DNA of 64,000 nt. Origin: Acidobacteriota bacterium. Its GTDB lineage: Bacteria > Acidobacteriota > Thermoanaerobaculia > Multivoradales > UBA5704. This document shows, piece by piece, positions 3,560 to 64,000 of the stretch. The notes under the pieces were generated by a model. The model had not been told where the DNA came from. It worked only from the letters and a program-made list of their open reading frames with translations, and made no database searches. Within the stretch, counting starts at the first letter, position 1, and the number at the start of each line of letters is the position of its first letter. Where the stretch lies: positions 28,552 through 92,551 of the forward strand of contig JBKPTH010000002.1 of the NCBI GenBank assembly GCA_046765915.1. Direction: 5' to 3'. The position numbers and the translations under genes are program-made.

Positions 3560-5734
3560 GTGCCCGTCTCCATGCGACCCGTGCCTCTCCCGCTGTACGG
3601 AGATCCGGCTCGAGTTCCGCCCGACCGCCCTCCCGGGGCCGTGGACGTCGTCGTACCGGTAGCCGGCGCGCCGGAGGCTTTCTCCCGCTGCCTCGACAGC
3701 CTCCTCGTTCATACCGACCTCGCGCGGGACCGGCTGGTGGTGGTGCTCGACGGGCCGCAGCCGGCGGCGACGGCAGAGCGCGTCGAGCGCCTGCGCCGGG
3801 AGCGGCCCGAAGGAGTCCTCGTCCTGGAAAACCCGCGGCGGCAGGGATTCGTCGCCGCCGTCAACCGCGGGCTGGCGGTTTCCGGCCGCGACGTCATCCT
3901 GCTCAACAGCGATACGCGGGTCACCGCGGGCTGGGTGCGCAAGCTCCAGGCGGCCGCCTATTCGGCGCCGGAGATCGCCACCGTGACGCCGTTCTCCAAC
4001 AGCGCCACCATCTGCTCGCTGCCGCGCTTCCTGGAGGCCAACGCCCTGCCCGCCGGCTGGGACGCCGACGCCTTCGGGCGTCTCGTCGAGGAGCGTTCGC
4101 GGCGGGCCTACCCGCGCCTGCCCACCGGCGTCGGCGTGTGCCTCTACGTCAAGCGCAAGGTCCTCGACGACGTCGGTCCCCTCGACGTCAAGAGCTTCGG
4201 CGAGGGCTACGGCGAGGAGAGCGAGCTCTGCATGCGGGCGCTCAAGGCGGGCTACGCGCATGCGCTGGACGACGCGACCTTCATCTTCCACGAGGGGCAG
4301 CGGAGCTTCGGCCCCAGCCGCCGGAAGAGGACGAAGGCCGCTCACCGGGCGATGCGGCGGCTGCATCCGGAGTATCTCGCCACGGTGGCGAGCTTCCTGC
4401 GCGAGGACCCGATCCGCCCCTTGCGCGAGCGCGTGGTCTCGGCGCTGATCCCCAAGCGGAGCTCACCCGACCTGCGCCGCCCGGTCAGGATCCTGCACCT
4501 GGTGCACGGCTGGCCGCCCTGGAACTCCGCGGGCACCGAGCTCTATGCCGCCTGGCTCGCCCGGCGGCAGGTTTGCCGGCGCGAAGTCACGGTCTACGCG
4601 CGCCTCGCCGACCCGCAGCAGCCCAACGGCGAGGCCGTGGAGCTCCTCGATCGCGGCGTCCGCGTACGGCTGATCGTCAACAATTTCACCCAGCGCGATC
4701 CGCTGGCGCGCAATGCCTTGCGGGACCGGGCGATCGAGGCGGACTTCGCGCGCCTGCTGGCGGAGACGGCGCCGGGGCTCCTCCACGTGCACCACCTGGC
4801 GGGGCACACCGCTTCCCTCGTCGGCGCGGCGGCGCGGCGGGGCATTCCGGTGGTCTTTCAGCTCCAGGACTGGTGGCAGGCCTGCGCCCGTGTCAATCTG
4901 CTGGACGCGTGGGGCCGCCTCTGCAGCGGCCCGGGGATCGGCAAGTGCGCGGCCTGCCGGCCGCTCACCGGCCTGCCGCCGGCCGCGGTGCTCAACCGGG
5001 CGCTCTACGCCTGGCGCGCCTCCCGGATGAAGCGCGCGCTACGCCAGGCGGACGCCTTCGTCATGGGCTCGCGCTGCATCCATGAGAGCTACCTGGAGCT
5101 CGGCTACCTGCGGCCGGAGGACCCGGCTTTCGTGATTCCGTACGGCGTGGATCTGCCGCCGCGGCTGGAACGGCGGCCTCGGCGGCCGGGCGAGCCCCTG
5201 CGCTTCGGAGTGATCGGCTCGCTCCTGCCGCACAAGGGGATTCACGTCGCGGCGGCCGCCTTCGCGGGGATGGATCCGGGCCGGGCGCGGCTGGCGATCT
5301 GGGGCGATCCGTCCGTCGATCCCTCCTATGCGGAAGCGCTGCTCGGATCGGCCGCCGTGGAGCTGCGCGGGCGCTTCGAGGAGCAGCGGAAGCCGGAGGT
5401 CTTCGCCGAGCTCGACGCCTTGATCGTGCCCTCGCTCGGCCTCGAGTCGTTCGGCCTGGTGGCGCGCGAAGCCCTCTACCACGGCGTGCCCGTGCTGGCG
5501 AGCGACCGTGGCGCGCTGCCGGAGCTCTTCGCGGGTCCGGGGGCGTACGGCGCGCTCTTCGATCCGGAGGATCCGGCGTCGCTGCGCGCCTGGATCGAGC
5601 GGTTGATCGCGGAGCCGGAGATCCTGGACCGTTGGACGGCCGCGCTGCCGGCCGTCAAGGGGATGGACGAGCACGCAGAGGAGATCGAGGGGGTCTACGA
5701 GCGGGTGCTGAGCCGGCGGAGGCCCTCGCGATGA
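3560..5734 (+). CDS. bifunctional glycosyltransferase: N-terminal GT2 domain fused to C-terminal GT4 (GT-B) domain
   Basis: The N-terminal Rossmann GT2 signature is present (VVPVAG...VVLDGPQP...LLNSDTRV). The C-terminal GT4 has the E-x7-E motif region (LIVPSLGLESFGLVAREALYHGVPVLASDRGALPELF). Start is GTG 3560 or ATG 3572. Confidence 0.7.
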   Translation: MPVSMRPVPLPLYGDPARVPPDRPPGAVDVVVPVAGAPEAFSRCLDSLLVHTDLARDRLVVVLDGPQPAATAERVERLRRERPEGVLVLENPRRQGFVAAVNRGLAVSGRDVILLNSDTRVTAGWVRKLQAAAYSAPEIATVTPFSNSATICSLPRFLEANALPAGWDADAFGRLVEERSRRAYPRLPTGVGVCLYVKRKVLDDVGPLDVKSFGEGYGEESELCMRALKAGYAHALDDATFIFHEGQRSFGPSRRKRTKAAHRAMRRLHPEYLATVASFLREDPIRPLRERVVSALIPKRSSPDLRRPVRILHLVHGWPPWNSAGTELYAAWLARRQVCRREVTVYARLADPQQPNGEAVELLDRGVRVRLIVNNFTQRDPLARNALRDRAIEADFARLLAETAPGLLHVHHLAGHTASLVGAAARRGIPVVFQLQDWWQACARVNLLDAWGRLCSGPGIGKCAACRPLTGLPPAAVLNRALYAWRASRMKRALRQADAFVMGSRCIHESYLELGYLRPEDPAFVIPYGVDLPPRLERRPRRPGEPLRFGVIGSLLPHKGIHVAAAAFAGMDPGRARLAIWGDPSVDPSYAEALLGSAAVELRGRFEEQRKPEVFAELDALIVPSLGLESFGLVAREALYHGVPVLASDRGALPELFAGPGAYGALFDPEDPASLRAWIERLIAEPEILDRWTAALPAVKGMDEHAEEIEGVYERVLSRRRPSR

Positions 5735-6960: not shown

Positions 6961-7227
6961 GCAGCCCGCCTATCCGCGCATGGCTGGCATGCCGGGTCCG
7001 GGCTTCGCCGCCGGTCCCTGTCTGGTCAAGGACACGATGCAGCTCGCCGCCTTCAGCCACAACCATTTCATGCTCGGGCACGCCGCCATGCTGGTGAACG
7101 AGGGCCTGCCCGGCCGGTCATGAGGTCGTGGGAATCGACGCCTCCCCCGCGGCGGCCGTCGTCCGCGACACCGCCCGGCGTGGCTGGCGCTCTACCGGGA
7201 GCTGGGACTGTTTCCCTAGGCTCTTGC

Positions 7228-8724
7228 TCAGCCGGCAACGCCAGCCTCGGCGACGGCCGGGGCGGCCTCGGCGCGCTCGGCCGGGGCGTCGACGCGCCGG
7301 GCAACGGCGATGATGCCCAGGCCTGGACCGGGGAGGTGGGGATCGAGCCTGCGGATCAGCGGCACCAGCACGTTGAACACCTTGAGCTGCACACGGCTGA
7401 AATAGCGCCGCTTGAGGAGCTTGCCGTTGAGCCACCAGCCCGGGACCGAGAGGTGGTTGAAGTCGCGGAAGCTCTCCACCTCGAAGCCGGTGGCGCGCAG
7501 CTCGCGGGCGAGCTGCGCTTTCGAGTAGCGGCAGCGGTGCCCCAGCACCTCGTCGAGCGTCGAATACAGCTCCTGGCCCTGCGGCACGTAGAGCAGCAGC
7601 CGGCCCCCGGGCTCGAGGGCGCTCGCCATGTTGCGCAGCGCCACCAGGGGATCGCGCACATGCTCCAGCACGTTCAGGCAGACGACCGTGTCGAACCGCC
7701 CGCGCCACGGCTCGAAGCAGCGCGGGTCTTCGAGGTCGATGCGGTCGACCTGCAGATAGGGCTTGCCCAGGGCAAGGTTGCGCAGGTACTGGAGATAGTG
7801 CGGATTGATGTCGCTCGCCACGTAAAGGTCGCGGGGCAGGAGCCAGGCGGTGATGTTGCCGATGCCGGCGCCGATCTCGAGCACCCGCGCGCCGCCGTAG
7901 GGCAGGATGGCTTCGGCCATCCAGCGGTTGAAGCGCTGCGCCCGCTCGAGACTGTGGAGGATGTGGGAACCGTACTCGTCTTCGGTGTAGACATCGTCGA
8001 GGATCCAGTAGCGCAGGACGGCGCGCAGGGCCTTGAAGGCGTCCTTCCAGCCGATCTTCTTGCCCTCGCGATAGGTGCGGCCGAGGTAGCTGATCGGCAC
8101 CTCGAAGACGCGGCACTCGCGCTTGGCGACCTTGGCGGTGATCTCCGGCTCCAGGGCGAAGTCGTTCGAGCGGATCGGGATCGACTTCAGAAGCGGCGCC
8201 CGGAACATTTTGTAGCAGGTCTCCATGTCCGTCAGGTTCAGGTCGGTGAACCAGTTGCTCAAGGTGGTCAGGAGACGGTTGCCGAGCGTGTGGCGGTAGT
8301 AGAGGACGCGGCGGCGCTCGCTGGGCAGGAAGCGCGAGCCGTAGACCACGTCCGCGCCGTCCTCGAGGAACGGCTTGGCGAGCCGGGCGTAGTCGCGCGG
8401 GTCGTACTCCAGGTCGGCGTCCTGGAAGACGATGAGGTCGCCGGTGGCCGCGGCGATGCCGGTGCGGATGGCCGCCCCTTTGCCCTGGTTGCGCTCGTGC
8501 TCGATGTAGCGGATCATCTCGGGGTGCCCGGCGGCCAGCCGGCGTAGGATGTCGCGGGTGCCGTCCTTCGAGCCGTCGTCGACAACGATGACCTCCAAGC
8601 CCTGGATGCCGGGCACCTCGACGGCGAGCACGCGGTGCAGCAGCTCTGCAACGAGAAACCGCTCGTTGTAGACGGGGACGACGACGGAGAGCTTGAGTTC
8701 TTGGCTGTTGGCCTGTCCGAGCAT
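7228..8724 (-). CDS. GT2 polyprenyl-phosphate sugar synthase-like (Dpm1/GtrB-type) fused to C-terminal class I SAM-dependent methyltransferase
   Basis: The N-terminus (LSVVVPVYNE...VIVVDDGSKDGT...VVYGSRF) is Dpm1-like. The C-terminus (VLEIGAGIGNITAWLL...VVCLNVLEHVRDP...EPGGRLLLYVPQ) is a class I methyltransferase fold. Confidence 0.7.
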   Translation of the reverse strand: MLGQANSQELKLSVVVPVYNERFLVAELLHRVLAVEVPGIQGLEVIVVDDGSKDGTRDILRRLAAGHPEMIRYIEHERNQGKGAAIRTGIAAATGDLIVFQDADLEYDPRDYARLAKPFLEDGADVVYGSRFLPSERRRVLYYRHTLGNRLLTTLSNWFTDLNLTDMETCYKMFRAPLLKSIPIRSNDFALEPEITAKVAKRECRVFEVPISYLGRTYREGKKIGWKDAFKALRAVLRYWILDDVYTEDEYGSHILHSLERAQRFNRWMAEAILPYGGARVLEIGAGIGNITAWLLPRDLYVASDINPHYLQYLRNLALGKPYLQVDRIDLEDPRCFEPWRGRFDTVVCLNVLEHVRDPLVALRNMASALEPGGRLLLYVPQGQELYSTLDEVLGHRCRYSKAQLARELRATGFEVESFRDFNHLSVPGWWLNGKLLKRRYFSRVQLKVFNVLVPLIRRLDPHLPGPGLGIIAVARRVDAPAERAEAAPAVAEAGVAG

Positions 8725-8758
8725 GGGATCTCTCGAGCAGCGTACGATAACACGCTGG
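8600..8758. repeat. copy 1 of a ~155 bp imperfect direct repeat (5' coding end plus leader of the GT2-methyltransferase gene)
   Basis: It is ~85% identical to 10195-10348 and includes the ATG, ~35 bp of leader and an inverted repeat CAGCGT-N8-ACGCTG. Confidence 0.8.
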
Positions 8759-8776
8759 CCGCGGAGCTAGGTGGAC

Positions 8777-8830
8777 ATGCCGAGCGGGCAATTGCAGGTC
8801 ATCCTGGACGTCAACGGCTACTTCCAATAA
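8777..8830 (+). pseudogene. relic C-terminal fragment of the recurrent VNGYFQ domain (MPSGQLQVILDVNGYFQ*)
   Basis: The 17-codon ORF ends with the same ...VI.DVNGYFQ-stop tail as 1464-3257. It lies between two minus-strand genes with no upstream body. Confidence 0.4.
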
Positions 8831-10313
8831 CGCGCCGCTCGCCTCCATCGAGCCAGGCCCCTGGATACGTTTTTTCCTTGGGCACCCCCATGAGCTCCAG
8901 GAGCCGCATGGGGGCGAAGCCCCCCTGAAGCTCCAGCACGTACGGCGTGTTGTGCAGCCGCCAGAGGTTGTCGAAGTTCGCATTCAGGATCGGCTCACTA
9001 CCGCCCTGATAGATGAAGGCGCCGACCGCCTGCACCCAAACCGAAAACACACAGGCGGCGACGAACAGCAGCTTCGGCAGCGGGCGCAGCGCCGCCACGA
9101 TGGGCGCAAGCATCCAGATCAAGATCGGCAGCACGTCGGTGAGGAAACGTGGGCCGTAAGAAAACCCGCCGCGCCAATCCGAGCGCGCGTAGAGCAGGAG
9201 TTGGAGCACCACGCCCGTGGCGAGGCACAGGGTGAGCTGGCGCCAACGCGGATCCTCCGAGCTGACACGAAAACGGAGCGGCAGAAACAGCAAGAACGGC
9301 GCGAAGGTGAAAAGGCCTTTGCCGGGACTGAAGAGCAGTCCCACAATTCCTACGGGGATTGGCTGGGAGAAGAACTGGGACCCGGCTAGAATGATGCCGT
9401 AGCCGCCGCTCACATTCCCGAACATCCAAAGGTTATAGGCCAGCGTCAACGCAGCCGGGATCGCAGCGGCGGCGAAAAAGGCGACCGCCCGCCTGCGGGC
9501 CCAGGGGAGAGCATAGGCGGCGAAGCCGACCGCCAACAGAGCATTCGCGGGGCGGTTCGCGGGTAGGAGGCCGGTGGCCAGCCCGGCCGCGATCACGTTG
9601 CCCCATCGCGGCTGCCGGGACATCAGCAAGAGGCTCGCCGTCACGAACAGCTCGGTGGCGCCGTGCTGCCAGAGGGCTTGGCTGCTGCTCATCCAGTGGT
9701 TGGTGCCGAAGGCATAGGCGCCAGTCACGAGCAGGGCCTCCTGCACGGCGACGCGGCGCCTGAGCAGCAGGAACATGAGGCCCACCGTCAGGGCGGCGAC
9801 GGTCGATGCCGCCACCTTTTCCATGATCTCGCCGACCACAGCGAGGCGTTGATCGGACCTTCCGCTCTGGTGCAGGTAGAGGACGGCGGGTAAGTACAGC
9901 GGGGTGACCAGCAGCGGCGTCACCACCGGGTAGGTCGAGGCCGTCCGGCCGTCGCGCGAGGTGAGAATCCAATAGATGATGGAATGGGGATACCCTCCGC
10001 GGGTCGCCTCGAGGACGGAGTCGAGGTGCAGGCTTCCCTCCTCCCAGATCGCGAACGGCAGGAAACGGGCCGGCAGCGAGTCGCCGGTCGCAATGGTGCG
10101 GAAATTGGCGTTGTAGACGAGCAAGGACAGAAAAGCCAGCAGGACCGCCAGATAGAGGTCCCGGCGCCCCGCCGGCGCCAGAGCGAGCGGGCGACCCTGG
10201 ATGCCGGGCACCTCAACGGCGAGCACGCGGCAGCTCTGCGACGAGGAATCGCTCGTTGTAGACGGGGATGACGACAGGAGCTTGAGCTCTCTGCTGTTGA
10301 CCTGATCGAGCAT
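8811..10313 (-). CDS. polytopic GT-C-like membrane protein (putative lipid-linked-sugar-dependent glycosyltransferase); start supplied by a duplicated GT2 leader and 5' segment
   Basis: About 12 predicted TM helices with a large C-terminal soluble region. The only in-frame start codons (ATG 10313, GTG ~10210) lie inside the duplicated segment. Confidence 0.5.
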   Translation of the reverse strand: MLDQVNSRELKLLSSSPSTTSDSSSQSCRVLAVEVPGIQGRPLALAPAGRRDLYLAVLLAFLSLLVYNANFRTIATGDSLPARFLPFAIWEEGSLHLDSVLEATRGGYPHSIIYWILTSRDGRTASTYPVVTPLLVTPLYLPAVLYLHQSGRSDQRLAVVGEIMEKVAASTVAALTVGLMFLLLRRRVAVQEALLVTGAYAFGTNHWMSSSQALWQHGATELFVTASLLLMSRQPRWGNVIAAGLATGLLPANRPANALLAVGFAAYALPWARRRAVAFFAAAAIPAALTLAYNLWMFGNVSGGYGIILAGSQFFSQPIPVGIVGLLFSPGKGLFTFAPFLLFLPLRFRVSSEDPRWRQLTLCLATGVVLQLLLYARSDWRGGFSYGPRFLTDVLPILIWMLAPIVAALRPLPKLLFVAACVFSVWVQAVGAFIYQGGSEPILNANFDNLWRLHNTPYVLELQGGFAPMRLLELMGVPKEKTYPGAWLDGGERRVIGSSR

Positions 10314-47336: not shown

Positions 47337-47825
47337 ATGGGCAAGAAGCTTTTCGTCGGCAACCTCAACTTCAAGACCAACGACGACGACCTGAAAGAGC
47401 TGTTCGGCCAGGCCGGCACGGTCGATTCGGCCACGGTGATGATGGACCGCGCCACCGGCCGCTCCCGCGGCTTCGGCTTCGTCGAGATGGGCACGGAAGA
47501 AGAGGCCCAGAAGGCGATCCAGCAGTTCAACGGCCACGAGTTCCAGGGCCGCAACCTGAACGTCAACGAGGCCCGCGAGCGCACGCCCGGCGGTCCGCGC
47601 GGCGGCGGCTATGGCGGCGGCTACAGTGGCGGCCGCGGCGGCTACGGCGGCGGCGACCGCGGCGGCTATGGCGGCGACTTCAACGCCGGTCCCAACTTCG
47701 GCGGCGGCGACGACTTCGGCGGCGGCAGTCCCGGCTTCGGCGGCGGCTTCAACCGCGGCAACTACAAGCCCCGCAAGGAAGGCGGCAGCCGGCGGGGCCT
47801 GCGGGCCAAGAAGCGCAGCCTGTAG
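47337..47825 (+). CDS. RRM-domain RNA-binding protein with glycine-rich (GGY/RGG) tail
   Basis: RNP2 is LFVGNL and RNP1 is RGFGFVEM. A C-terminal GGYGGG low-complexity region follows. Confidence 0.8.
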   Translation: MGKKLFVGNLNFKTNDDDLKELFGQAGTVDSATVMMDRATGRSRGFGFVEMGTEEEAQKAIQQFNGHEFQGRNLNVNEARERTPGGPRGGGYGGGYSGGRGGYGGGDRGGYGGDFNAGPNFGGGDDFGGGSPGFGGGFNRGNYKPRKEGGSRRGLRAKKRSL

Positions 47826-55322: not shown

Positions 55323-56659
55323 ATGCCCACGCTGCTGCTCTTCGCGCTCCTCTTGGCGTCTCTCGCCATTCTCGCGGGCTTCCTGATCAGGCGGCGGTTG
55401 AGGCGGCGCATCCAGGCCCTCACCGAGGCGGCGGAGCGCATCGGCCGCGGCGACCTCCGGACGCCGGCGCCGCGTGCGCCGGAAGCCGAGCTCGGCACGC
55501 TCGCCGCCGCCATGGACGACATGCGGCGGCGCCTGCTCCAGCTCACCTCCGAGCTGCGCCGCCGCCAGGCCGAGGGCGAGGCGATCCTCACCGGCATCGT
55601 CGAAGGGGTGTTCAGCGTCGATCGCGACCGCCGCATCCGCTATCTCAACCCCGCCGCGGCGGCGATGCTCGGCGTGCGGCCGGAGGAGGCGCTCGGCCGC
55701 TTCTGCGGCGACGTGCTGAACCCGCAGGGCCGCGAGGGCGTGCGGCCGTGCGAGGAGAGCTGCCCCATCGTGCACGCCCGCTTCCGCGGCGGCGCCGCCG
55801 CCACCGAGCACCTGCTGCGGCCGGACGGCACGCGGCGCGCTGTGGTGATCACCAGCGCGCCGCCGGCCGAGGAGCAGCAGGTGCAGTTGCTGCGCGACGA
55901 GACCGACGTCGAAGCCGCGCGCCGGCAGCGCGACGCCGTGCTCGCCAACATCTCCCACGAGTTCCGCACGCCGCTCTCGGCCCAGCTCGCCTCGCTCGAG
56001 CTGCTGCGCGACCGGCTGCTGCAATCTCCCGAGGGGCTCGATCCCGAGACGCGCGATCTCGTCCTCTCGCTGGAGCGCGGCAGCCTGCGCCTGACGCATC
56101 TCATCGACAACCTGCTGGAGAGCGTGCGCATCGAATCAGGGCAGGACTCGATCCGCGGCCGCCCGGTGGCCCTCGACGAGGTGATCGAGGAGGCCGTCGA
56201 GATGACCGCCCCGCTGCTCGCCCAGCGCGCCCAGTCCATCGAGGTCGAGCTGCCGTATCCGCTGCCAGCGGTCCATGGCGACGCGCCCCGCCTCACCCAG
56301 GTGTTCGTCAATCTGCTTGCCAACGCCAACAAGTTCGCGCCCGCGGGCTCCGCCGTGCGCGTCGGCGGCGCGGTGGAGGAGGAGCGGATCGTGCTATGGG
56401 TGGAGGACGACGGGCCGGGGATTCCGGCGGCGGCCGGGGCCGCGGGCGGGCGGTCCCTCTTCGACCGCTTCGTGCGCCTCGCCGGCGAAGGGGAGGAGCC
56501 GGAGTCGGGAGGCATGGGACTGGGCCTGTTCATCGTGCGCTCCATCGTCGAGCGGCACGGCGGCACGGTCGAGGCGGAGGCAGGGAGCGGTGGCCGCGGC
56601 ACGCGCCTGCGGATCCTCCTGCCGCGGGCCGCTCACGGCGCCGGCGAGGAGACCGCGGC

Positions 56660-56663
<4 letters not shown>
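55323..56663 (+). CDS. sensor histidine kinase (TM, HAMP, PAS-like, HisKA, HATPase_c)
   Basis: The H-box is ISHEFRTPL, the N-box is VNLLANANKFA, and the G-boxes are DDGPGIP and GGMGLGL. Confidence 0.8.
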
Positions 56664-57355
<692 letters not shown>

Positions 57356-57426
57356 GAACCGCTGTGCAGGCTCGGCTCCGGAAACCCACTGGAGGCACCG
57401 ATGGGGTTCAGCTTGGCAATGATCCT

Positions 57427-57456
57427 TGACAAATGGAGTCCATCAATGGCATATTA
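57427..57456 (+). promoter_or_regulatory. putative sigma70-like promoter with embedded palindrome ATGGA-N-TCCAT
   Basis: TTGACA is followed by a 17-18 nt spacer and then CATATT, upstream of ORF 57636. Confidence 0.25.
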
Positions 57457-57635
57457 GGCGCATTCAGCAACGGAGCGCATCATCGGCTCCCATAGAGCAA
57501 CCCAGCGGCGCGGGAATCACTGGATCGGGAACCAGCGAGGCCGCCGGGCGAGATTGAAGCCGGAGTTGGCCCGGCGCCAATCGAGGCGCCGTGGTTGAAC
57601 CGGAGCCCAAGCGGCTCCAAAAAAGGAGAAGGACC

Positions 57636-58052
57636 ATGCCGAAGCGAAAGAACAAGGAGAAGTTGAAGTCCCGCCTGGGGTACCTCCAGCGCCTCAACGC
57701 CCCGCTGACCGCCAACAGCGCCGACCTGGTGCATCTGGAGGCCACGCGCGCGCGGTTCGCGGAGTTTCTGGCGCAGGCCGAGGAAGCGGCTAACCGCCAG
57801 GGCGTCCACACCGCCGCCAAGCAGGAGGCGAGCCTGCAGCTCCGCACGGCTCTCGCCGAGTGCGAGCGGCTGGCGAACATCCTGCGCCTGGGGGTCAAGC
57901 AGCACTACGGCATCCGCTCGGAGAAGCTCGCCGAGTTCGGTCTGCAGCCGTTCCGTGGCCGCAAGACCCCGGATGCCGAGGAGCCGCAGCCTTCCGTTCC
58001 CACGCCGCCGGAGCCGCAAACGCCGCCGCCGGTCAACCCCAAACAGTCCTGA
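57636..58052 (+). CDS. hypothetical protein (basic N-terminus, Pro-rich C-terminus)
   Basis: Strong AAGGAG ribosome-binding site 7 nt upstream of the ATG. GC3 is high. Confidence 0.45.
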   Translation: MPKRKNKEKLKSRLGYLQRLNAPLTANSADLVHLEATRARFAEFLAQAEEAANRQGVHTAAKQEASLQLRTALAECERLANILRLGVKQHYGIRSEKLAEFGLQPFRGRKTPDAEEPQPSVPTPPEPQTPPPVNPKQS

Positions 58053-58149
58053 AGTCCTCGGGAGGCGTGGACCTTCACGCCTCCCTCCCTTTGTCTCCCC
58101 CTCTTCGAAGACCCGATCCGCGGACGCTCCGCCTGGGCCCGTGGACCTC

Positions 58150-58750
58150 TTGACCGACTCTCGGCACCCTGAGAAAAAGTCCGCTTACTCGATGAGCGAG
58201 CAAGCTTATTTTTCCCAAAAGAAGCTCGCTCCTTGAAAGAGTCCCGGGACTTTGCCGGAAATAAGCTCACTCGGCGACTGAGCAAGCTCATCCAATGAAA
58301 GAGCGAGCTTGTTTTTCCGTAGCGGAGCTTGCTCTTTGAAAGAGTCCCGCCAACTTTGCAAAGATCCGCGGACTCGGTGACTGAGCGAGCTCACTCACTG
58401 ACTGAGCGAGCTTGTTTTTCCGCAGCGGAGCTTACCCGATGAAAGAGTCCCGGGACTTTGCCGGAAATAAGCGGCCTCATTGACCGAACGAGCTCGTCCG
58501 GAGAAAGAGCGGGCTTCTTTTCGCGTAGCGGAGCTTCCTCGCTGACTGAGTCCCGGGACTTTGGCAGAAATAAGCGGACTCACTGACTGAGCAAGCTCGC
58601 TCGCTGACTGAGTGAGCTTATTTTCCCGAAAACGGGCCCACTCACCGACAAAGTCCCGGGACTTTGCCAAAAATAAGCCGGCTCATTGACTGAGGAAGCT
58701 CACTCGCTGACTGAGCGAGCTTATCTTTGCAAAGAGGAGCGGGCTCGCCG
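58150..58750. repeat. tandem array of about 5.5 copies of a ~103 bp repeat, each with an 18 bp perfect palindrome CAAAGTCCCGGGACTTTG and a long imperfect hairpin
   Basis: Unit starts are at about 58240, 58344, 58442, 58548 and 58651. Conserved blocks are AGTCCCGGGACTTTGCCGGAAATAAGC and GAGCGAGCTTGTTTTTCC. No ORF is present. Confidence 0.8.
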
Positions 58751-58969
58751 AGGAGCTCCCGGGCCGTCGCGCCCGCACCGAGCCGACAGCTCCCCCCGCG
58801 CGGGGACGGGAAGGCATCCTTCGGGGAGAGTCCTCGCAGGCGCCGTCCTTCCCCGGCCGGCGAGCCGGCGAGGGCTCAAAGAAGAAAGTTGTCAGATGAG
58901 TCGGCGTTTTTCCGTCTTATATAGGTGGCGGACGGAATCGCCCGTCCGGTCCATCGAGAGGGCTGCGCT

Positions 58970-59962
58970 ATGCCTGAGCCGACCCATGCCGTTTCTTCCA
59001 CGAGGGAGCCCAAGCTGCTCGACCGGGTTCGCGCCTCGGCGCGAGTCCGTCACCTGAGCCTCCGCACCGAGAGGACCTACGTCCAGTGGATCCGCCGCTA
59101 CATCCTTTTTCACGGCAAGCGCCATCCCGCGGAGATGGGGGAGGCGGAGATCAACACCTTCCTGACGCACCTGGCCGTCGAGGGAAAGGTCAGCGCCTCG
59201 ACGCAGACTCAGGCCCTGTGCGCGATCCTGTTCCTCTACCGCGCTGTCCTGGGCCGGGAGGTGGGCGAGTTCGAGGGGCTCGTACGGGCCAGACGCAGGC
59301 GCAAGCTGCCGGTGGTGCTGACGGCGGAGGAGGTCAAGCGGATCCTGGTCAACGTCGAAGGAGTCGAGCGGCTCTTCCTTTCTCTCCTCTACGGCACCGG
59401 ACTGCGGCTGACGGAGGCCCTCCGGTTGAGGATCAAGGACGTGGACCTGGTCTACGACCAGATCACCGTACGCGACGGCAAGGGAGGGAAGGATCGCGTG
59501 ACCATGCTGCCGGTCTCCTTGAAGGCCGAGCTGATGGAGCACCTCAAGGGTGTCAAGCGGCTGTACGAGGAGGATCTGCGCGCCGGGTACGGCCGCGTCC
59601 ATCTTCCCCATGCCTTGGCGAGGAAATACCCGCGGGCGGCGGGTGAATGGGGCTGGCAATACGTCTTCCCGGCGCCGCAGATCTCGCGCGACCCGCGTTC
59701 AGGAGAGCACCGGCGCCACCACCTGCACGAGAGGCCGCTCCAACGAGCCTTCCATGATGCGGCACGGAAGGCCGCCGTCACGAAGGCGGCGACCTGCCAT
59801 ACCCTGCGGCACTCCTTCGCCACCCACTTGCTGATGAACGGCTACGACATCCGGACGGTGCAGGAGCTCCTGGGGCACAGCAGCGTGAAGACGACGATGA
59901 TCTACACCCACGTCCTCAACCGCGGCGGCCGGGGCGTGCGGAGCCCGATCGACGTGCTATAG
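58970..59962 (+). CDS. intI: integron integrase
   Basis: Colinear with IntI1, including the IntI-specific patch [21 protein letters not shown]...[14 protein letters not shown]. Box I is [16 protein letters not shown], box II is [12 protein letters not shown]...[22 protein letters not shown], and the C-terminus is GVRSPIDVL. Confidence 0.85.
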
Positions 59963-60354
59963 CCGGGTTTGCGCCGGCGTCTTATACGACCGGTTTCAGC
60001 CGCATAAGCAGCTCGGCTGCCGAGCCAAGGTATCCCCGCAACCGGTTGAAAGGATGGAAGATAGGCGAGGCTTGCCGAGTTGGCGAGAGGAGTGCTTCTT
60101 GCCTCTGAGCCAGCCGGATATCGTTCCCTTGGACGGCATATGGCCTTCGGATAAGGCTCACGCATGCGACGGTCTGCGGCCCCAACCTCAGCCGTTTCAA
60201 CAGGATCGCCCACAGCAAGCCTCCGTGCAGGAAAGCTGCCGATGTCCTCGGCGGCCCGAGAGGCTTATGCGACTGAATCTCCTCAGTTTGACCTGGCGCC
60301 GAAGGCGCTGTAGAATACTATGACGCATAGAATGAATGACATAGACCGCTTTCT

Positions 60355-60419
60355 CGAATTCGAGAACCCCCGTGACGCGAAGCACGCCACGAGGGGCGCA
60401 TAAGCTCAGTGCGAGGTTA
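60355..60419 (+). mobile_element. putative attI / first recombination site ending in canonical GTTAGGC core
   Basis: GTTAGGC is followed by GGCAGGGAGAAG. The same TAGGCGGCAGGAGA junction recurs after attC0 at 60692. Confidence 0.3.
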
Positions 60420-60440
60420 GGCGGCAGGGAGAAGTTGACG

Positions 60441-60647
60441 ATGGCGAAGGCAACAACCTGTCTTCTGAATGGTCGACGCGTTGAGATCGCTGAAGCCCTG
60501 CGTCTCAGGCAGGCCGAACGGATGGCGCCACCGTTTCGATGTATCGAGTGTTGCAAGCAAGTCCGGGCACATAAGAGGGGAACGACTGGCCAAGCAGCGC
60601 ATTTCGAACATCAGGAGCGAAACCCTTCTTGCTCCCTGAGCGGGTAG
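60441..60647 (+). CDS. cassette ORF: small Cys/His zinc-ribbon-like protein
   Basis: Ribosome-binding site GGGAGAAG. The metal-ligand pattern is FRCIECC...HFEH. The 3' end overlaps attC0. Confidence 0.4.
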   Translation: MAKATTCLLNGRRVEIAEALRLRQAERMAPPFRCIECCKQVRAHKRGTTGQAAHFEHQERNPSCSLSG

Positions 60648-60692
60648 CGGTCGGCAAGCATGTGTCGCAGCGCCGCACGCCACTGGTTGGCC
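60616..60692 (+). mobile_element. attC-like site 0 (77 bp)
   Basis: It aligns with attC1 and attC2: AGCGAAACCC...GAGCGG...GTTGGCC. Confidence 0.45.
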
Positions 60693-60716
60693 TGAGCTAG
60701 GCGGCAGGAGATATCG

Positions 60717-61100
60717 ATGAAGCAAGTAGTGCTGTCGATCCTAGTAGCTGTTCTGCTGGGCAACTGCCAGACAGCAGCCAGGCAAGAAGCCGATAGGCAA
60801 GCTTATTGCCTCAACGAGCTCGCGTGGTCGAGTGACCTTAGTAGACCGAAAATTATCGAATCCGAACCACCGTCGGGTTATCACTACGACGGCGGCGTCC
60901 TGCGAGCCTGTCTCGCTGTCCAGATTGACGAAGCTGGCAATGTCACAGGAGTGGAGGTGATCCGTACAGACTCTTCAGATTTCGGCTCAGCCTGTGCATC
61001 TGCGTTGAGGCGCTGGCACTTCGAGCCCGCAAGGAGGGGCTCAACACCGGTCGCTGTCACGTATCGCATATTTATGGTGAGTAGTATGACATATTTATAG
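60717..61100 (+). CDS. cassette ORF: secreted protein with TonB C-terminal-like domain
   Basis: Signal peptide. The C-terminus has the TonB_C-like pattern ACLAVQIDEAGNVTGVEVIRTDSSDFGSACASALRRWHFEPA. Confidence 0.5.
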   Translation: MKQVVLSILVAVLLGNCQTAARQEADRQAYCLNELAWSSDLSRPKIIESEPPSGYHYDGGVLRACLAVQIDEAGNVTGVEVIRTDSSDFGSACASALRRWHFEPARRGSTPVAVTYRIFMVSSMTYL

Positions 61101-61446
61101 GAGTATGGTGCAGTGGTTCGCCGCCTAACCCTCGCTTGGAGCGGACCGGCGGGCGACCGATCCAGCACGCAGGAGCGGCTGTGGCCGCCGGTCGCTCAAG
61201 CGTTGAACGTTCGCCGGCTGGCATGTCGAGGTTACCGCTTCAGGATTCATTGGCGGGGGAATTGAGCAGTGGCTGGTCAAACGGTTGATTCTCTAGAGCA
61301 CGGTGGTATCAGGTTTTCAGCAGACCTCCTTGCTGAGCTAGATCGTGGTCGTCCGGATGGGTTGGATCATTGATGCTCCGTTGTATGAGAAGGCTAGGTA
61401 AGGCAGGCCCTTATGAAGTGGTGAGGTATTGGTCTTGGAGAACGCC

Positions 61447-61521
61447 GGCGAACCCCGCCGATCGAGCGGACGGAAACCGCAAACTGCGCGGTTCCCGCCG
61501 CTCATCGGCATCCCGTTGGCC
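61447..61521 (+). mobile_element. attC site 1 (75 bp)
   Basis: R'' is GGCGAAC and R' is GTTGGCC. The central region GAGCGGACGGAAACCGCAAACTGCGCGGTTCCCGCC is an imperfect palindrome. Confidence 0.6.
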
Positions 61522-61722
61522 GGCCAAAAGTTGAGAAACGCCATTCCGTGAGCTCGATGTGCTGATGCGAGTAGGCTCAGCCGCGCGGAGAAGCTCGCCA
61601 AGTGGGTAGCACCTGTCTGCCCGGGCACGAGTGTTATCTCTGCCGTTCTCTTCTGATATACTGTTATACCCAGGGCACGCCGGATGCGCCGTCGTGCCCG
61701 AAGCTAATCTCAGGAGGACGAT

Positions 61723-62151
61723 ATGAAGAAGACAGCGGCAAGTCTTGGATTGTTCTTTCTGCTCATGGCGCATGTCGCACTGGCTGCGGACGACGGTCAG
61801 ACACAGCCGAAGGTGAACACTACTTTTACCAACTCCACAACGGCAACGGACCTAATCGCTACGACGAATGGCTCCGGTAATGTAAAGGGCGTGACGTGTA
61901 AACTGACCCAGGACGGATCAGGGTTCTTTCCAACAGCGCTCGTGAAGTTTTATGTGAACGGCGGCTCCGCACAATCCGTCACGCTCACTAGCGACTACAT
62001 GCTGCCATCCGGCACCGGACCTTTCGCAGATGGTTATACCGGCTGGGTCCCTTTCAATGTTCGCTTCACGAACAGCATTCGCATTACGATTCAAAAGGCC
62101 ACGTCGAGTGGTCTACAGATAGACTGCGCAGTAAGCTGGGGACTCGACTGA
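61723..62151 (+). CDS. cassette ORF: small secreted hypothetical protein
   Basis: Ribosome-binding site AGGAGGA. Signal peptide is MKKTAASLGLFFLLMAHVALA. GC content is ~50%. Confidence 0.5.
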   Translation: MKKTAASLGLFFLLMAHVALAADDGQTQPKVNTTFTNSTTATDLIATTNGSGNVKGVTCKLTQDGSGFFPTALVKFYVNGGSAQSVTLTSDYMLPSGTGPFADGYTGWVPFNVRFTNSIRITIQKATSSGLQIDCAVSWGLD

Positions 62152-62426
62152 CGTCGCGGCGCAACGCGTTACAGGTGATGTTATGGAAAGCGTTTCACGG
62201 CGGCCCGTAACGAGGCGCAGGATAGGTACCGATGGGCGGGCGCAGGTGCCGATAAGTGCCCCCAAATAGGCTCCGAATTAAAGGTGTCGACCGAGTGGAG
62301 AGGGGCACCAAACTGGCACTTGCATTTAGCGGAGGACTCTAGCCATAGTGTGGCTCTTGGGGTAGAATTGGAGCAGCCACTGCAGAGGAGAAGCTGCATA
62401 CCAATATCGCAATGTACTGGTTGTAC

Positions 62427-62503
62427 GGCCAACCCGAAGCGGTCGAGCGGACGGAAACCGCAAACAGCGCGGTTTCCGCGCGCTCACCGCTAAAGCGTTG
62501 GCC
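62427..62503 (+). mobile_element. attC site 2 (77 bp)
   Basis: R'' is GGCCAAC and R' is GTTGGCC, a perfect inverted pair. The centre is almost identical to attC1. Confidence 0.65.
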
Positions 62504-62537
62504 GACTAGATAGATGAGCTAAGGAGCATAATTTTTT

Positions 62538-63971
62538 GTGACAGCACCACCCGAAGAACCCAAGGGCGGAGAGTTGCGGAAAGGCCCTCTCGAAAGTCTA
62601 AAGGCGCTCGATCTAGTTGCACCCAAGGACCATAAAATCTGGGCCTTCGCGTTCCTTTTGCGGCTCAGTGAAGTGACCGGGATCCGGCAAGTAAAGGCGC
62701 TTTTTAAGTTCATGTTCGTTGAACTGGCGCCTTCGATTCCGGTCTCGCTAAGACGCAGCATCACGGGTGCGGCAGGTCTTCAGTCTGCGATCCTGGGTGC
62801 CGTGATCACGCTGATCTTCTGCCTTCTTGTGCCCATAGGTTGGACTATTGCAATCGGACGCTTCTCCAGCGACAAACCTGGAAATTTGTTTTTGCTGCAG
62901 GACGCCACTAACCTTGTTCTCTACTCGATTGTGTGTCCACTCTACGTAGGCCTGGGGTGTTGGTTGGCAGTCGCAGTCATAAAAGGTTGGGCAGACATTA
63001 AGGAATTCGCATCGACGCTTGGTTCCAAAGTGGAAAAGCCTTCGCGAGCAACGCTTATCAAAAACCTGCTTCTGGTTATTTTAATCCTCTCGATGGGATT
63101 CTTCTCCACCGCAGCCTATATCAACGATATCATGAAGCCAGACAACGTGCCTCAGCGCTACTGGTTTATGGATCTCAGCCGCTCGGGTGAACACATTCTG
63201 GGTGCTTTGGGTGTCTACTATTTTTTGTTGACTTTTGTTCTGCTCATCGTGACGCTTATATCAATCACTTTGTTCATGTCAATCTTTGTTTCGGTTATGG
63301 CAGTTGGGGACGCGTTGGAATCCAGAACACAACCCACTGAAGCCGAGCTGCCGGTTCTCGAGGCCAAGTTATCCACATTTACCGAAGCCTATATTCTTGC
63401 CAAAACACTGACCTTCGTATACATGGTCAATTTCTATCTGTGGCAGAAATCCCCCCTTGGCGCTACTCAGAATATATATGTCGCCGTCATCTTCTTGACC
63501 CTCTTCGGAGTCTTGTTTGTTTCGCTGCCTCGCTACTTCGTTGAGTTGCAATGGTACCGATTTCTGGTGCGCTCAAAACAAGTGCGTATTGATGAGGATG
63601 TATACGAGGATATTCGCCCGTACCGGATCAGAACACTTGCCTCTATTATGGATGACCTCCTGATTGGAGGCTTCGTGATCACAGTACTGACGGGTCTGCT
63701 TTCAGGGGTTCTCTCGAGCTCAGGGCCATACGCGCGTGTCTTTCGCGATTCGCGTGTGCAGAGCACATACACTGTCGCAGTTGACCTTTGTTACTATGAA
63801 CCGCCTGCGCAGCTTGCCTCAGAACTTGGGGTAGCTAATGATCGTGAGGTTATCGCTCGGGCCTATTCAATGCGCTCAACAGAGAGTGCACACCGTGAAG
63901 CGGCGTACATAGGCTGTTTGAAAGGGCTATCCGGGCTTGGCTCTGGCCAGAAAAAGCAATTTGGACATTGA
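62538..63971 (+). CDS. cassette ORF: polytopic membrane protein of unknown function
   Basis: GTG start 11 nt after AAGGAG. About 10 TM helices. Codon usage is low-GC. Confidence 0.5.
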   Translation: MTAPPEEPKGGELRKGPLESLKALDLVAPKDHKIWAFAFLLRLSEVTGIRQVKALFKFMFVELAPSIPVSLRRSITGAAGLQSAILGAVITLIFCLLVPIGWTIAIGRFSSDKPGNLFLLQDATNLVLYSIVCPLYVGLGCWLAVAVIKGWADIKEFASTLGSKVEKPSRATLIKNLLLVILILSMGFFSTAAYINDIMKPDNVPQRYWFMDLSRSGEHILGALGVYYFLLTFVLLIVTLISITLFMSIFVSVMAVGDALESRTQPTEAELPVLEAKLSTFTEAYILAKTLTFVYMVNFYLWQKSPLGATQNIYVAVIFLTLFGVLFVSLPRYFVELQWYRFLVRSKQVRIDEDVYEDIRPYRIRTLASIMDDLLIGGFVITVLTGLLSGVLSSSGPYARVFRDSRVQSTYTVAVDLCYYEPPAQLASELGVANDREVIARAYSMRSTESAHREAAYIGCLKGLSGLGSGQKKQFGH

Positions 63972-64000
63972 GCTGAGTTGGAGACCGAAGTAAACCGTGA

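Follow-up and report, generated by a model that had tools for sequence, protein, structure and literature searches.

A tandem array of palindromic ~103-bp repeats, lying between a small open reading frame (ORF) and an integron integrase gene (intI), raises the question of whether such an array is a component of the integron or belongs to something else. The array was analysed within a 64-kb stretch of DNA, hereafter the window, from an Acidobacteriota bacterium (assembly GCA_046765915.1, contig JBKPTH010000002.1, positions 28,552-92,551 of the forward strand), in which a histidine kinase, a response regulator and the small ORF (57636-58052) are encoded upstream of the repeats. As set out below, the array is tied to the small gene rather than to the integron, and it is built on a lattice of two helical turns, which may serve as a platform for binding at the DNA level.

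To begin with, the existence and extent of the array were established. Tandem Repeats Finder reported it at 58183-58724 (period 103, 5.3 copies, 76% matches, 1% indels, score 478), together with a second period in the form of a 206-bp super-period. The CCCGGG centres were located at 58243, 58346, 58449, 58552, 58655 and 58758, with a spacing of exactly 103 bp and zero indels, the centre at 58346 being degenerate (CCCGCC) and that at 58758 a remnant. Neither of the two motifs of the unit occurred again within the window, 100 shuffles giving at most one match or none, and a profile hidden Markov model (HMM) of the unit detected no further copy of the array elsewhere in the window or in what remained of the fetched loci. 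The array is thus confirmed as real and non-random, and the tandem ~103-bp arrangement described in the original prediction for this stretch was borne out by the repeat finder, the motif spacing, the shuffles and the HMM. In contrast, the perfect 18-bp palindrome that had been attributed to each unit was present in only one of them (CAAAGTCCCGGGACTTTG, 58649-58666), while three other units had a perfect 12-bp AGTCCCGGGACT with an imperfect extension and one unit was degenerate. The second long hairpin of the unit (GGAAATAAGC...GCTTGTTTTTCC) was found, imperfect as had been stated. Moreover, the array had been placed immediately upstream of intI, which it does not directly abut, as 207-246 bp separate the end of the array from the start of intI (58970). 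The description of the array as non-coding was supported, and so was its distinction from clustered regularly interspaced short palindromic repeats (CRISPR), the whole 103-bp unit being repeated and unique spacers being absent. It was also correctly said to differ from attC sites: no attC core (GTTRRRY, RYYYAAC), LexA box, DnaA box or parS was found in 58100-58880. The G+C content in windows inside the array was ~52-56%, compared to ~70% in the host genes. Overall, the anatomical claims made here on the module can be held with high confidence.

The 103-bp unit consists of five blocks of ~20.6 bp, about two helical turns each, and slicing the window array on this lattice gave 29 consecutive blocks (58184-58761). 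The consensus of the box within each block was A.AGAG..AGCT..CT, centred on AGCT or on AGTCCCGGGACT, the latter appearing as every fifth box. In the window-type arrays and in that of the more distant locus L018, autocorrelation peaks were found at 21, 41, 62, 82/83, 103, 124, 144, 165, 186, 206, 227 and 247 bp, and in the arrays of loci L019 and L007 at multiples of 20.25 bp. Among the ten arrays analysed, AGCT was enriched 3-13 fold in seven, not enriched in that of L016 and absent from those of L001 and L010, and wherever it was present it was phased (Rayleigh R of 0.87-1.0, periods of 20.2-20.75 bp). Furthermore, the block lattices of the arrays ran over 23-38 boxes with no drift. Since autocorrelation, block slicing and AGCT phasing all fell on multiples of ~20.6 bp, the 103-bp unit is a higher-order repeat of five two-turn blocks.

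The linkage between the array and the small gene was examined in the window and in six further homologue contexts (L014 to L019), whose proteins were 77%, 75%, 80%, 88%, 58% and 48% identical to that of the window, respectively. The same layout appeared in all six, with the gene followed by a terminator hairpin and then by a tandem array of ~0.16-0.8 kb, the periods of which were multiples of 20.2-20.7 bp. The upstream neighbours were all different (a radical-SAM gene, an outer-membrane protein, a tRNA methyltransferase gene, ArgR and RmuC, in addition to an unidentified fragment at the contig end in L017), the downstream genes varied between loci, and no intI was found at any of the six. The homology of the window to L014-L017 began 115-210 bp 5′ of the gene and extended into the array. 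In particular, the arrays of close homologues matched the unit HMM of the window, while those of L018 (with boxes such as GGAAGCTTCC) and L019 (CCTAAGCTTAGG) were unrelated to it in sequence and still kept the two-turn lattice, the array of L018 also retaining higher-order periods of 82 and 103 bp. The gene and the array are therefore a conserved chromosomal two-part module, which recurs across Thermoanaerobaculia genomes. Moreover, the 1.3-kb contig of a further locus (L008) stops 211 bp past the stop codon of the gene, at the first palindrome of its array.

Regarding the 138-aa protein, 679 homologues were found in a 90%-clustered database, and the family comprised 1100 clusters at 50% identity (E ≤ 0.001), the only taxon named for it by any source being Thermoanaerobaculia. 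The 150 best-scoring proteins of the family were all stand-alone, with lengths of 88-204 aa. A strongly conserved core (...LANILRLGVKQHYGIRSEKLAEFGLQPFRGRK) is followed by a variable proline-rich tail. No match beyond coiled-coil noise was obtained in Pfam, NCBIfam, PHROG or PADLOC, and the profile of the protein had no match in viral contigs. The AlphaFold2 model (predicted local distance difference test score of 82.5) had three long helices arranged as a three-helix bundle, for which a fold search against the PDB returned no match at E ≤ 0.001. The protein is plausibly a nucleic-acid binder, given its isoelectric point of 9.9, the family median of 9.6 and the conservation of positions occupied by K, R, Q or H. 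Furthermore, a comparison of the small gene with its counterpart in a relative (locus L002, 3594-4010) gave 5.8% of differences at codon positions 1 and 2 against 7% at four-fold sites, most of them in the proline-rich tail. Such a concentration, together with a rate at positions 1 and 2 close to that at four-fold sites, suggests that the tail evolves almost freely and that the helical core is conserved. No account of the repeats or of the small protein was found in the searchable literature.

Further arrays were searched for with a DNA core pattern (GTCCCGGGACTTTGNNNNAAATAAGC) in one genome per species and in metagenomes. The first scan gave four loci, two in each of two Thermoanaerobaculia metagenome-assembled genomes (MAGs), and the second gave three more. 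No match to the pattern was found in viral contigs, none came from the plasmid and phage collections that were queried with the units by blastn, and a spurious ORF running through the array had only two matches in the protein database, by which no further locus was gained. Locus L002 is the syntenic locus of a relative (MAG097), with flanking genes ~91% identical, 3.5 units and a remnant of intI. That remnant (4700-4965) comprises the upstream platform and the last ~53 codons, so that the integron is decaying there while the repeat module is kept. Locus L003 of the same MAG, and likewise its orthologue L005, harboured the whole of 58099-58875 at 85% identity, flanks included, between unrelated genes and with no intI. 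The arrays of L001, L004, L006 and L007 shared the core and were found in other intergenic regions, with units of 62 or 81 bp or mosaics of 21, 62 and 83 bp. As for variation, orthologous units of the four 103-type loci were 86-95% identical compared to 73-85% for non-orthologous ones, and entire units or single 21-bp blocks have been gained or lost between these loci, so that units measure 82, 103 or 124 bp; copy number, singled out in the original prediction as worth comparing, does vary between relatives. The module diverged by 9.5% between the window and L002, against 15% at the four-fold sites of the neighbouring genes. A different array, with 7.3 palindromic units of 21 bp (CAGACCTCGCGAGGTTTGCTC), was observed at L010 (3176-3331) and L011 (3439-3594), between the genes for an aspartyl-tRNA synthetase and an acetyltransferase and ~1.4 kb upstream of another intI; its period was exactly 21 bp (lags of 21, 42, 63 and so on) and not 20.6 bp.

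The independence of the array from the integron was seen from both sides. Five loci with related integrases (L009-L013, IntI 79-89% identical) had no match to the unit HMM. In the closest of them, L013 (IntI 89% identical), an ArgR gene lies upstream and there is no array, and its conservation with the window begins only at ~58878, past the end of the module. Conversely, the array persists at loci without intI. The link to intI implied in the original prediction does not stand against these observations: the array is not a component of the integron, and its adjacency to intI is incidental.

The features of the module and of the adjacent integron are collected in Table 1. The TTGACA hexamer of the promoter was kept in six of the seven homologous loci. 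For the leader of the small gene, which has counterparts in L002 and L014-L019 and is conserved also where the proteins are 48-58% identical, the RNAalifold consensus had 33 pairs, eight of them with compensatory changes; its hairpins include CTGG..CCAG and CCGGCGCC..GGCGCCGG. No Rfam family reached the threshold in the leader (57456-57635), which could be a cis-regulatory RNA. A GGGCGTG...CACGCCC hairpin with a T-run was found 3′ of the gene in L014, L015, L016, L017, L018 and L019, for instance at ~5425-5465 in L014, ~4425-4460 in L018 and ~4420-4455 in L019. Such sequence conservation across distant homologues is unusual for an ordinary intrinsic terminator, and the hairpin may have a second role. 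Terminal inverted repeats at the ends of the module (CCGATCC / GGATCGG) were considered and dismissed for being too short and inconsistent.

Table 1. Coordinates of the repeat module and of the neighbouring integron in the window
Feature	Position	Strand	Remarks
Sigma-70-like promoter	57426..57455	+	TTGACA, 18-nt spacer, CATATT; consensus scan
Leader of the small gene	57456..57635	+	~180 nt with hairpins; conserved across loci with proteins 48-90% identical
Gene for the 138-aa basic protein	57636..58052	+	Predicted three-helix protein; candidate partner of the array
Terminator-like hairpin	58060..58097	+	GGGAGGCGTG-GACCTT-CACGCCTCCC and T-rich tail; between gene and array
Left flank of the repeat module	58108..58182	+	~90% identity with L002, L003 and L005, the copy at a gene-less locus among them
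Tandem array	58183..58763	.	5.5 units of 103 bp = 29 blocks on a 20.6-bp lattice
Full 103-bp units	58239-58341, 58342-58444, 58445-58547, 58548-58650, 58651-58753		A partial unit adjoins them on either side
Right flank of the repeat module	58764..58872	+	GC-rich, no significant fold; highly conserved in L002, L003 and L005
Start of the integron platform (intI upstream region)	58878..58969	+	Outside the module; conserved with L013 from ~AGAAAGTTGTCAGATGAG onward
intI, integron integrase	58970..59962	+	Outside the module; TIGR02249 469 bits (cut-off 265); Pfam Phage_int_SAM_4 and Phage_integrase

Concerning the level at which the lattice acts, RNA folding of the 103-bp units was modestly better than that of shuffled sequences (z-scores from -2.4 to -5.8), while z-scores of ~0 were obtained for the 62-bp unit variant and for the flanks (58764..58872, ~0 on both strands). 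The better-folding strand among nine arrays was the one co-oriented with the gene in four, the opposite in four and a tie in one, and a scan for promoter consensus sequences found no site in or just before the array. The lattice most likely works as double-stranded DNA, because a terminator stands between gene and array, no promoter was found, there is no consistent strand preference and the 62-bp unit and flanks have z-scores of ~0, and also because palindromic boxes on a two-turn lattice suit dimers on one face of the helix, a spacing that is irrelevant to RNA.

On these grounds, the array is tentatively read as a lattice for binding at the DNA level, the most likely ligand being the product of the neighbouring gene. 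In order, the module consists of a promoter, a leader of ~180 nt, the 138-aa gene, a hairpin terminator and a lattice of ~29 boxes (GAG..AGCT..CTC and AGTCCCGGGACT), in which the boxes, being 20.6 bp or two helical turns apart, would all lie on one face of the helix. Dimers or oligomers of a sequence-specific protein, the candidate being the adjacent 138-aa product, would occupy the boxes and form an extended nucleoprotein complex, and this small protein would have additional targets in the gene-less arrays at other places of the genome. The arrays change as slippage or unequal recombination adds or removes entire units or single 21-bp blocks. Candidate cellular roles of such a complex include those of a boundary or an insulator, the organisation of the chromosome and the titration of the small protein. 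The original prediction had offered an array of regulator binding sites as one option, which comes close to this reading once the link to intI is removed. A wider version of it, possible though on the unlikely side, would be an as yet undescribed bacterial chromatin-type system widespread in Thermoanaerobaculia, in which a dedicated small three-helix protein recognises lattices of palindromic boxes two helical turns apart, one always beside its own gene and others scattered over the chromosome, and builds large nucleoprotein structures. These might act as boundaries or insulators, as landmarks for replication forks or segregation, or as landing zones for integrons and insertion sequences (ISs), and protein and box sequence would co-evolve, by analogy with the transposases associated with repetitive extragenic palindromes (REPs), known as RAYTs, and their repeats, here without a transposase.

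Several points weigh against a lattice bound by the neighbouring protein. No DNA-binding fold can be recognised in the small protein, whose model is a generic bundle of three helices that matched nothing in the PDB. The gene-linked contexts examined number only seven, and arrays without the adjacent gene outnumber the gene-linked ones in the DNA-pattern scans (six of the seven loci). Moreover, the 20.6-bp quantisation, instead of being selected, could be a legacy of ancestral blocks of 20 and 21 bp, and the divergence of protein and array could reflect time-dependent drift together with regeneration of the repeats by slippage. Finally, hairpins followed by T-runs, resembling terminators, were found on both strands of each 103-bp unit (7 vs. 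2.4 expected), which fits a role like that of REPs and of bacterial interspersed mosaic elements (BIMEs).

Known binding arrays offer partial parallels. Iteron and inc arrays beside the gene of their binding protein are exemplified by P1 repA-incA and F repE-incC. Common to these and to the present array are direct repeats of ~20 bp placed ~two turns apart directly downstream of the gene of the putative binder, with the potential to titrate or pair DNA, and the 20.6-bp lattice with its 29 blocks indeed has the direct repeats of ~17-22 bp and the two-turn phasing of iterons. However, iteron systems rely on a winged-helix Rep initiator, whereas the protein here is a 138-aa predicted three-helix bundle with no Rep-like family or fold, and they include an AT-rich unwinding element and a DnaA box, both absent from an array with a G+C content of 52-56%. 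In addition, the array is chromosomal, has gene-less copies elsewhere and carries palindromic boxes within higher-order units of 62-186 bp. In plasmid centromeres such as sopC of F (12 units of 43 bp, every one with a palindrome of 16 bp) and parC of pSK41 and R1, tandem units with a palindromic core likewise stand beside a small-protein gene, here that of a putative binder, and an extended nucleoprotein complex would form in both. In contrast to them, no ParA, ParM or TubZ nucleoside triphosphatase gene was found in the neighbourhood in the window or at L014-L019, several arrays occur per chromosome, and the predicted protein fold is neither ribbon-helix-helix nor ParB-like. The GC-skew profile of the window gave no signal of an origin or terminus near the array.

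A rival, though an unlikely one, is that the arrays are a lineage-specific family of dispersed mosaic extragenic palindromic repeats without a partner, similar to REP/BIME, pneumococcal BOX or mycobacterial MIRU elements. Such repeats would be kept by slippage and recombination, and their action would not go beyond that of hairpin terminators, stabilisers of mRNA or sites for gyrase, the small gene being just one favoured neighbour. BOX elements of Streptococcus pneumoniae and MIRUs of Mycobacterium tuberculosis are dispersed intergenic tandem repeats of 40-100 bp whose copy number varies between strains. The present arrays fall descriptively in this class, as intergenic tandem repeats at several loci with copy-number and block-deletion variants, without being a homologous family. 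Several intergenic arrays per genome, of variable copy number and with mosaic units of 21, 42, 62, 82, 103 and 124 bp, speak for such an origin, and so do the block-deletion variants of the unit and, as in BOX elements, the conserved modules at either end, between which the number of units varies. The hairpin and T-run motifs on both strands, the IS3-family element within the L017 array, as is known for REPs, and the other 21-bp palindromic arrays of related genomes (L010/L011) point in the same direction. Nevertheless, there is no sequence similarity to BOX or MIRU, and the arrays differ from them in being linked to a specific conserved gene and in their internal two-turn periodicity. With REP/BIME and RAYT systems the arrays share clustered extragenic palindromes with mosaic linkers, a gene flanked by its own repeat type, copies elsewhere, a lineage-specific repeat sequence and a tendency to attract IS insertions. 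In a REP, however, a palindrome of 20-40 bp is marked at one of its ends by GTAG or CGTC (PMC3733652), and no consistent tag was seen here: GTAG appeared in two of the five units, away from the main palindrome, CGTC at a single place among the repeat units (58495) and at two in the right flank, and both were absent from the 62-bp variants. Furthermore, the copy number appears low in the sequences covered, the unit HMM having found no additional copy in the window or elsewhere in the loci fetched, the 20.6-bp lattice is strict, and no RAYT gene was seen, the partner being no Y1 transposase (no Pfam match, predicted three-helix bundle). A partner-less repeat leaves unexplained why an array stands at the same position in all seven gene contexts despite a complete change of sequence.

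A repeat-rich non-coding RNA acting on, or bound by, the small protein, whether as a CsrB-like sponge, a repeat RNA like those of type III toxin-antitoxin systems or a structured 3′ untranslated region, appears quite improbable. The folding of the 103-bp units, the many short hairpins of the array, the small and basic protein and the conserved structured leader, which hints at control at the RNA level, would agree with it. On the other side stand the conserved terminator that parts gene and array, with no promoter-like site before the latter, the inconsistency of the better-folding strand among loci, the absence of better folding in the 62-bp unit, and the palindromic boxes with their two-turn spacing, which matter for duplex DNA and not for RNA. 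No known non-coding RNA family, which the original prediction had raised as an ordinary explanation, was matched by the array: a scan of 56500-64000 against Rfam 15 at a permissive E-value gave chance matches only, the best in the array being mir-193 (23 bits vs. a threshold of 55), which reflects the palindromes only. The structured RNA array also proposed there finds little support, given the z-scores and the inconsistent strand. The toxI-type repeat RNAs of type III toxin-antitoxin systems consist of tandem repeats of ~36 nt, a terminator and an adjacent gene for a small endoribonuclease. The ~5.5 tandem repeats and a terminator between repeats and small gene are common to both, but here the gene comes first, in reverse of toxI-toxN, the units are 103 bp long, the predicted all-helical bundle is not an endoribonuclease fold and there was no match in PADLOC.

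Very improbable is a third account, by which the units would be miniature inverted-repeat transposable elements (MITEs) inserted head to tail, with 21-bp terminal inverted repeats (GGGACTTTGCCAGAAATAAGC ... CAAAGTCCC) meeting at CCC/GGG, and mobilised by an IS transposase encoded elsewhere; such pile-ups would share the ends GGGACTTTG..AAATAAGC. Unit variants of 62, 81 and 103 bp do have common ends and different interiors, the arrays of L004 and L007 start or stop at the CCC/GGG junction, and the half-palindrome of the unit presumably resembles ends of the IS5/IS903 type. However, target-site duplications between units are absent, no solo copies were found with the unit HMM in the window and fetched loci, there was no match in plasmid, phage and viral collections, and no matching transposase was seen. 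Moreover, the units are stable and occupy orthologous positions from locus to locus, which is not what a recent pile-up of insertions would give, and the 20.6-bp lattice runs on through the interiors of the supposed elements.

Lastly, an integron feature, be it sites for a regulator or for IntI controlling intI or a set of degenerate ORF-less cassettes (an option of the original prediction), is already effectively refuted, as it has in its favour only the position 207-246 bp upstream of intI and the array kept with an intI remnant in L002, against the lack of attC cores and of a LexA box, cassettes lying on the other side of intI, five related integrons with no array, a platform conserved with L013 that starts past the module end and arrays persisting where there is no intI. 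Overall, the array fails the defining features of the iteron, centromere, REP, attC, CRISPR and type III toxin-antitoxin families.

The integron itself and the other mobile neighbours were also recorded. Both attC core patterns occur in the cassette region (59963-64000), with attC sites of the type GGCCAAC...GTTGGCC at ~61430-61530 and ~62421-62505, downstream of intI. The cassettes follow intI on the same strand, and the array lies on the opposite side of intI; intI being upstream of its cassettes on the same strand corresponds to the 'inverted integrase' arrangement (58970-64000). Among the cassette ORFs are those of a protein with a TonB_C domain (60717-61100) and of a membrane protein of 477 aa (62538-63971). 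At other loci, an IS3-family element cuts the array of L017 after ~1.5 units (1259-2614), an IS4-like transposase gene and IS21 genes follow the array of L016 (7112-10426), and a DDE transposase gene lies near that of L018 (6925-8157). The integron here and the IS elements in the other genomes would simply have inserted beside the array, and the occurrence of mobile elements at L016-L018 and of the integron in the window suggests that the far side of the array is a landing zone for mobile DNA. Downstream of the array of L015 (6260-9400), a VapB/VapC-like remnant was found with small genes (DUF4160, DUF2442, Uma2 and EVE) typical of cassette arrays. The region, which may be a cassette array without an integrase, also has two copies of a 34-bp element (7067-7100 and 8002-8034) and a GTTAGGC preceding its first gene. 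In L009, which lies on a 7-Mb contig, a gene for a reverse transcriptase of the group II intron type (RVT_1 and GIIM) was found at 7795-9012 among presumed cassettes past the related intI. Elsewhere in the window, a GGC-rich tandem repeat (47599-47759; periods of 3, 12, 18, 21 and 33 bp) is probably a glycine-rich coding repeat unrelated to the array.

The more interesting outcome is that a small-protein family without annotation is paired, in a conserved manner, with a lattice of palindromes on two helical turns. For integron biology, the outcome is a useful negative: the array should not be taken for a new type of attI or attC or for a bank of regulatory sites. It does mark a place at which mobile DNA has gathered in several genomes. 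If the protein does bind the lattices, the module would represent a new sequence-specific nucleoprotein system in a poorly studied phylum abundant in soils and sediments, with a protein family of ~1100 clusters at 50% identity that is currently without annotation, and would account for a class of intergenic repeats that break metagenome assemblies, such as the contig ending at the first palindrome of its array.

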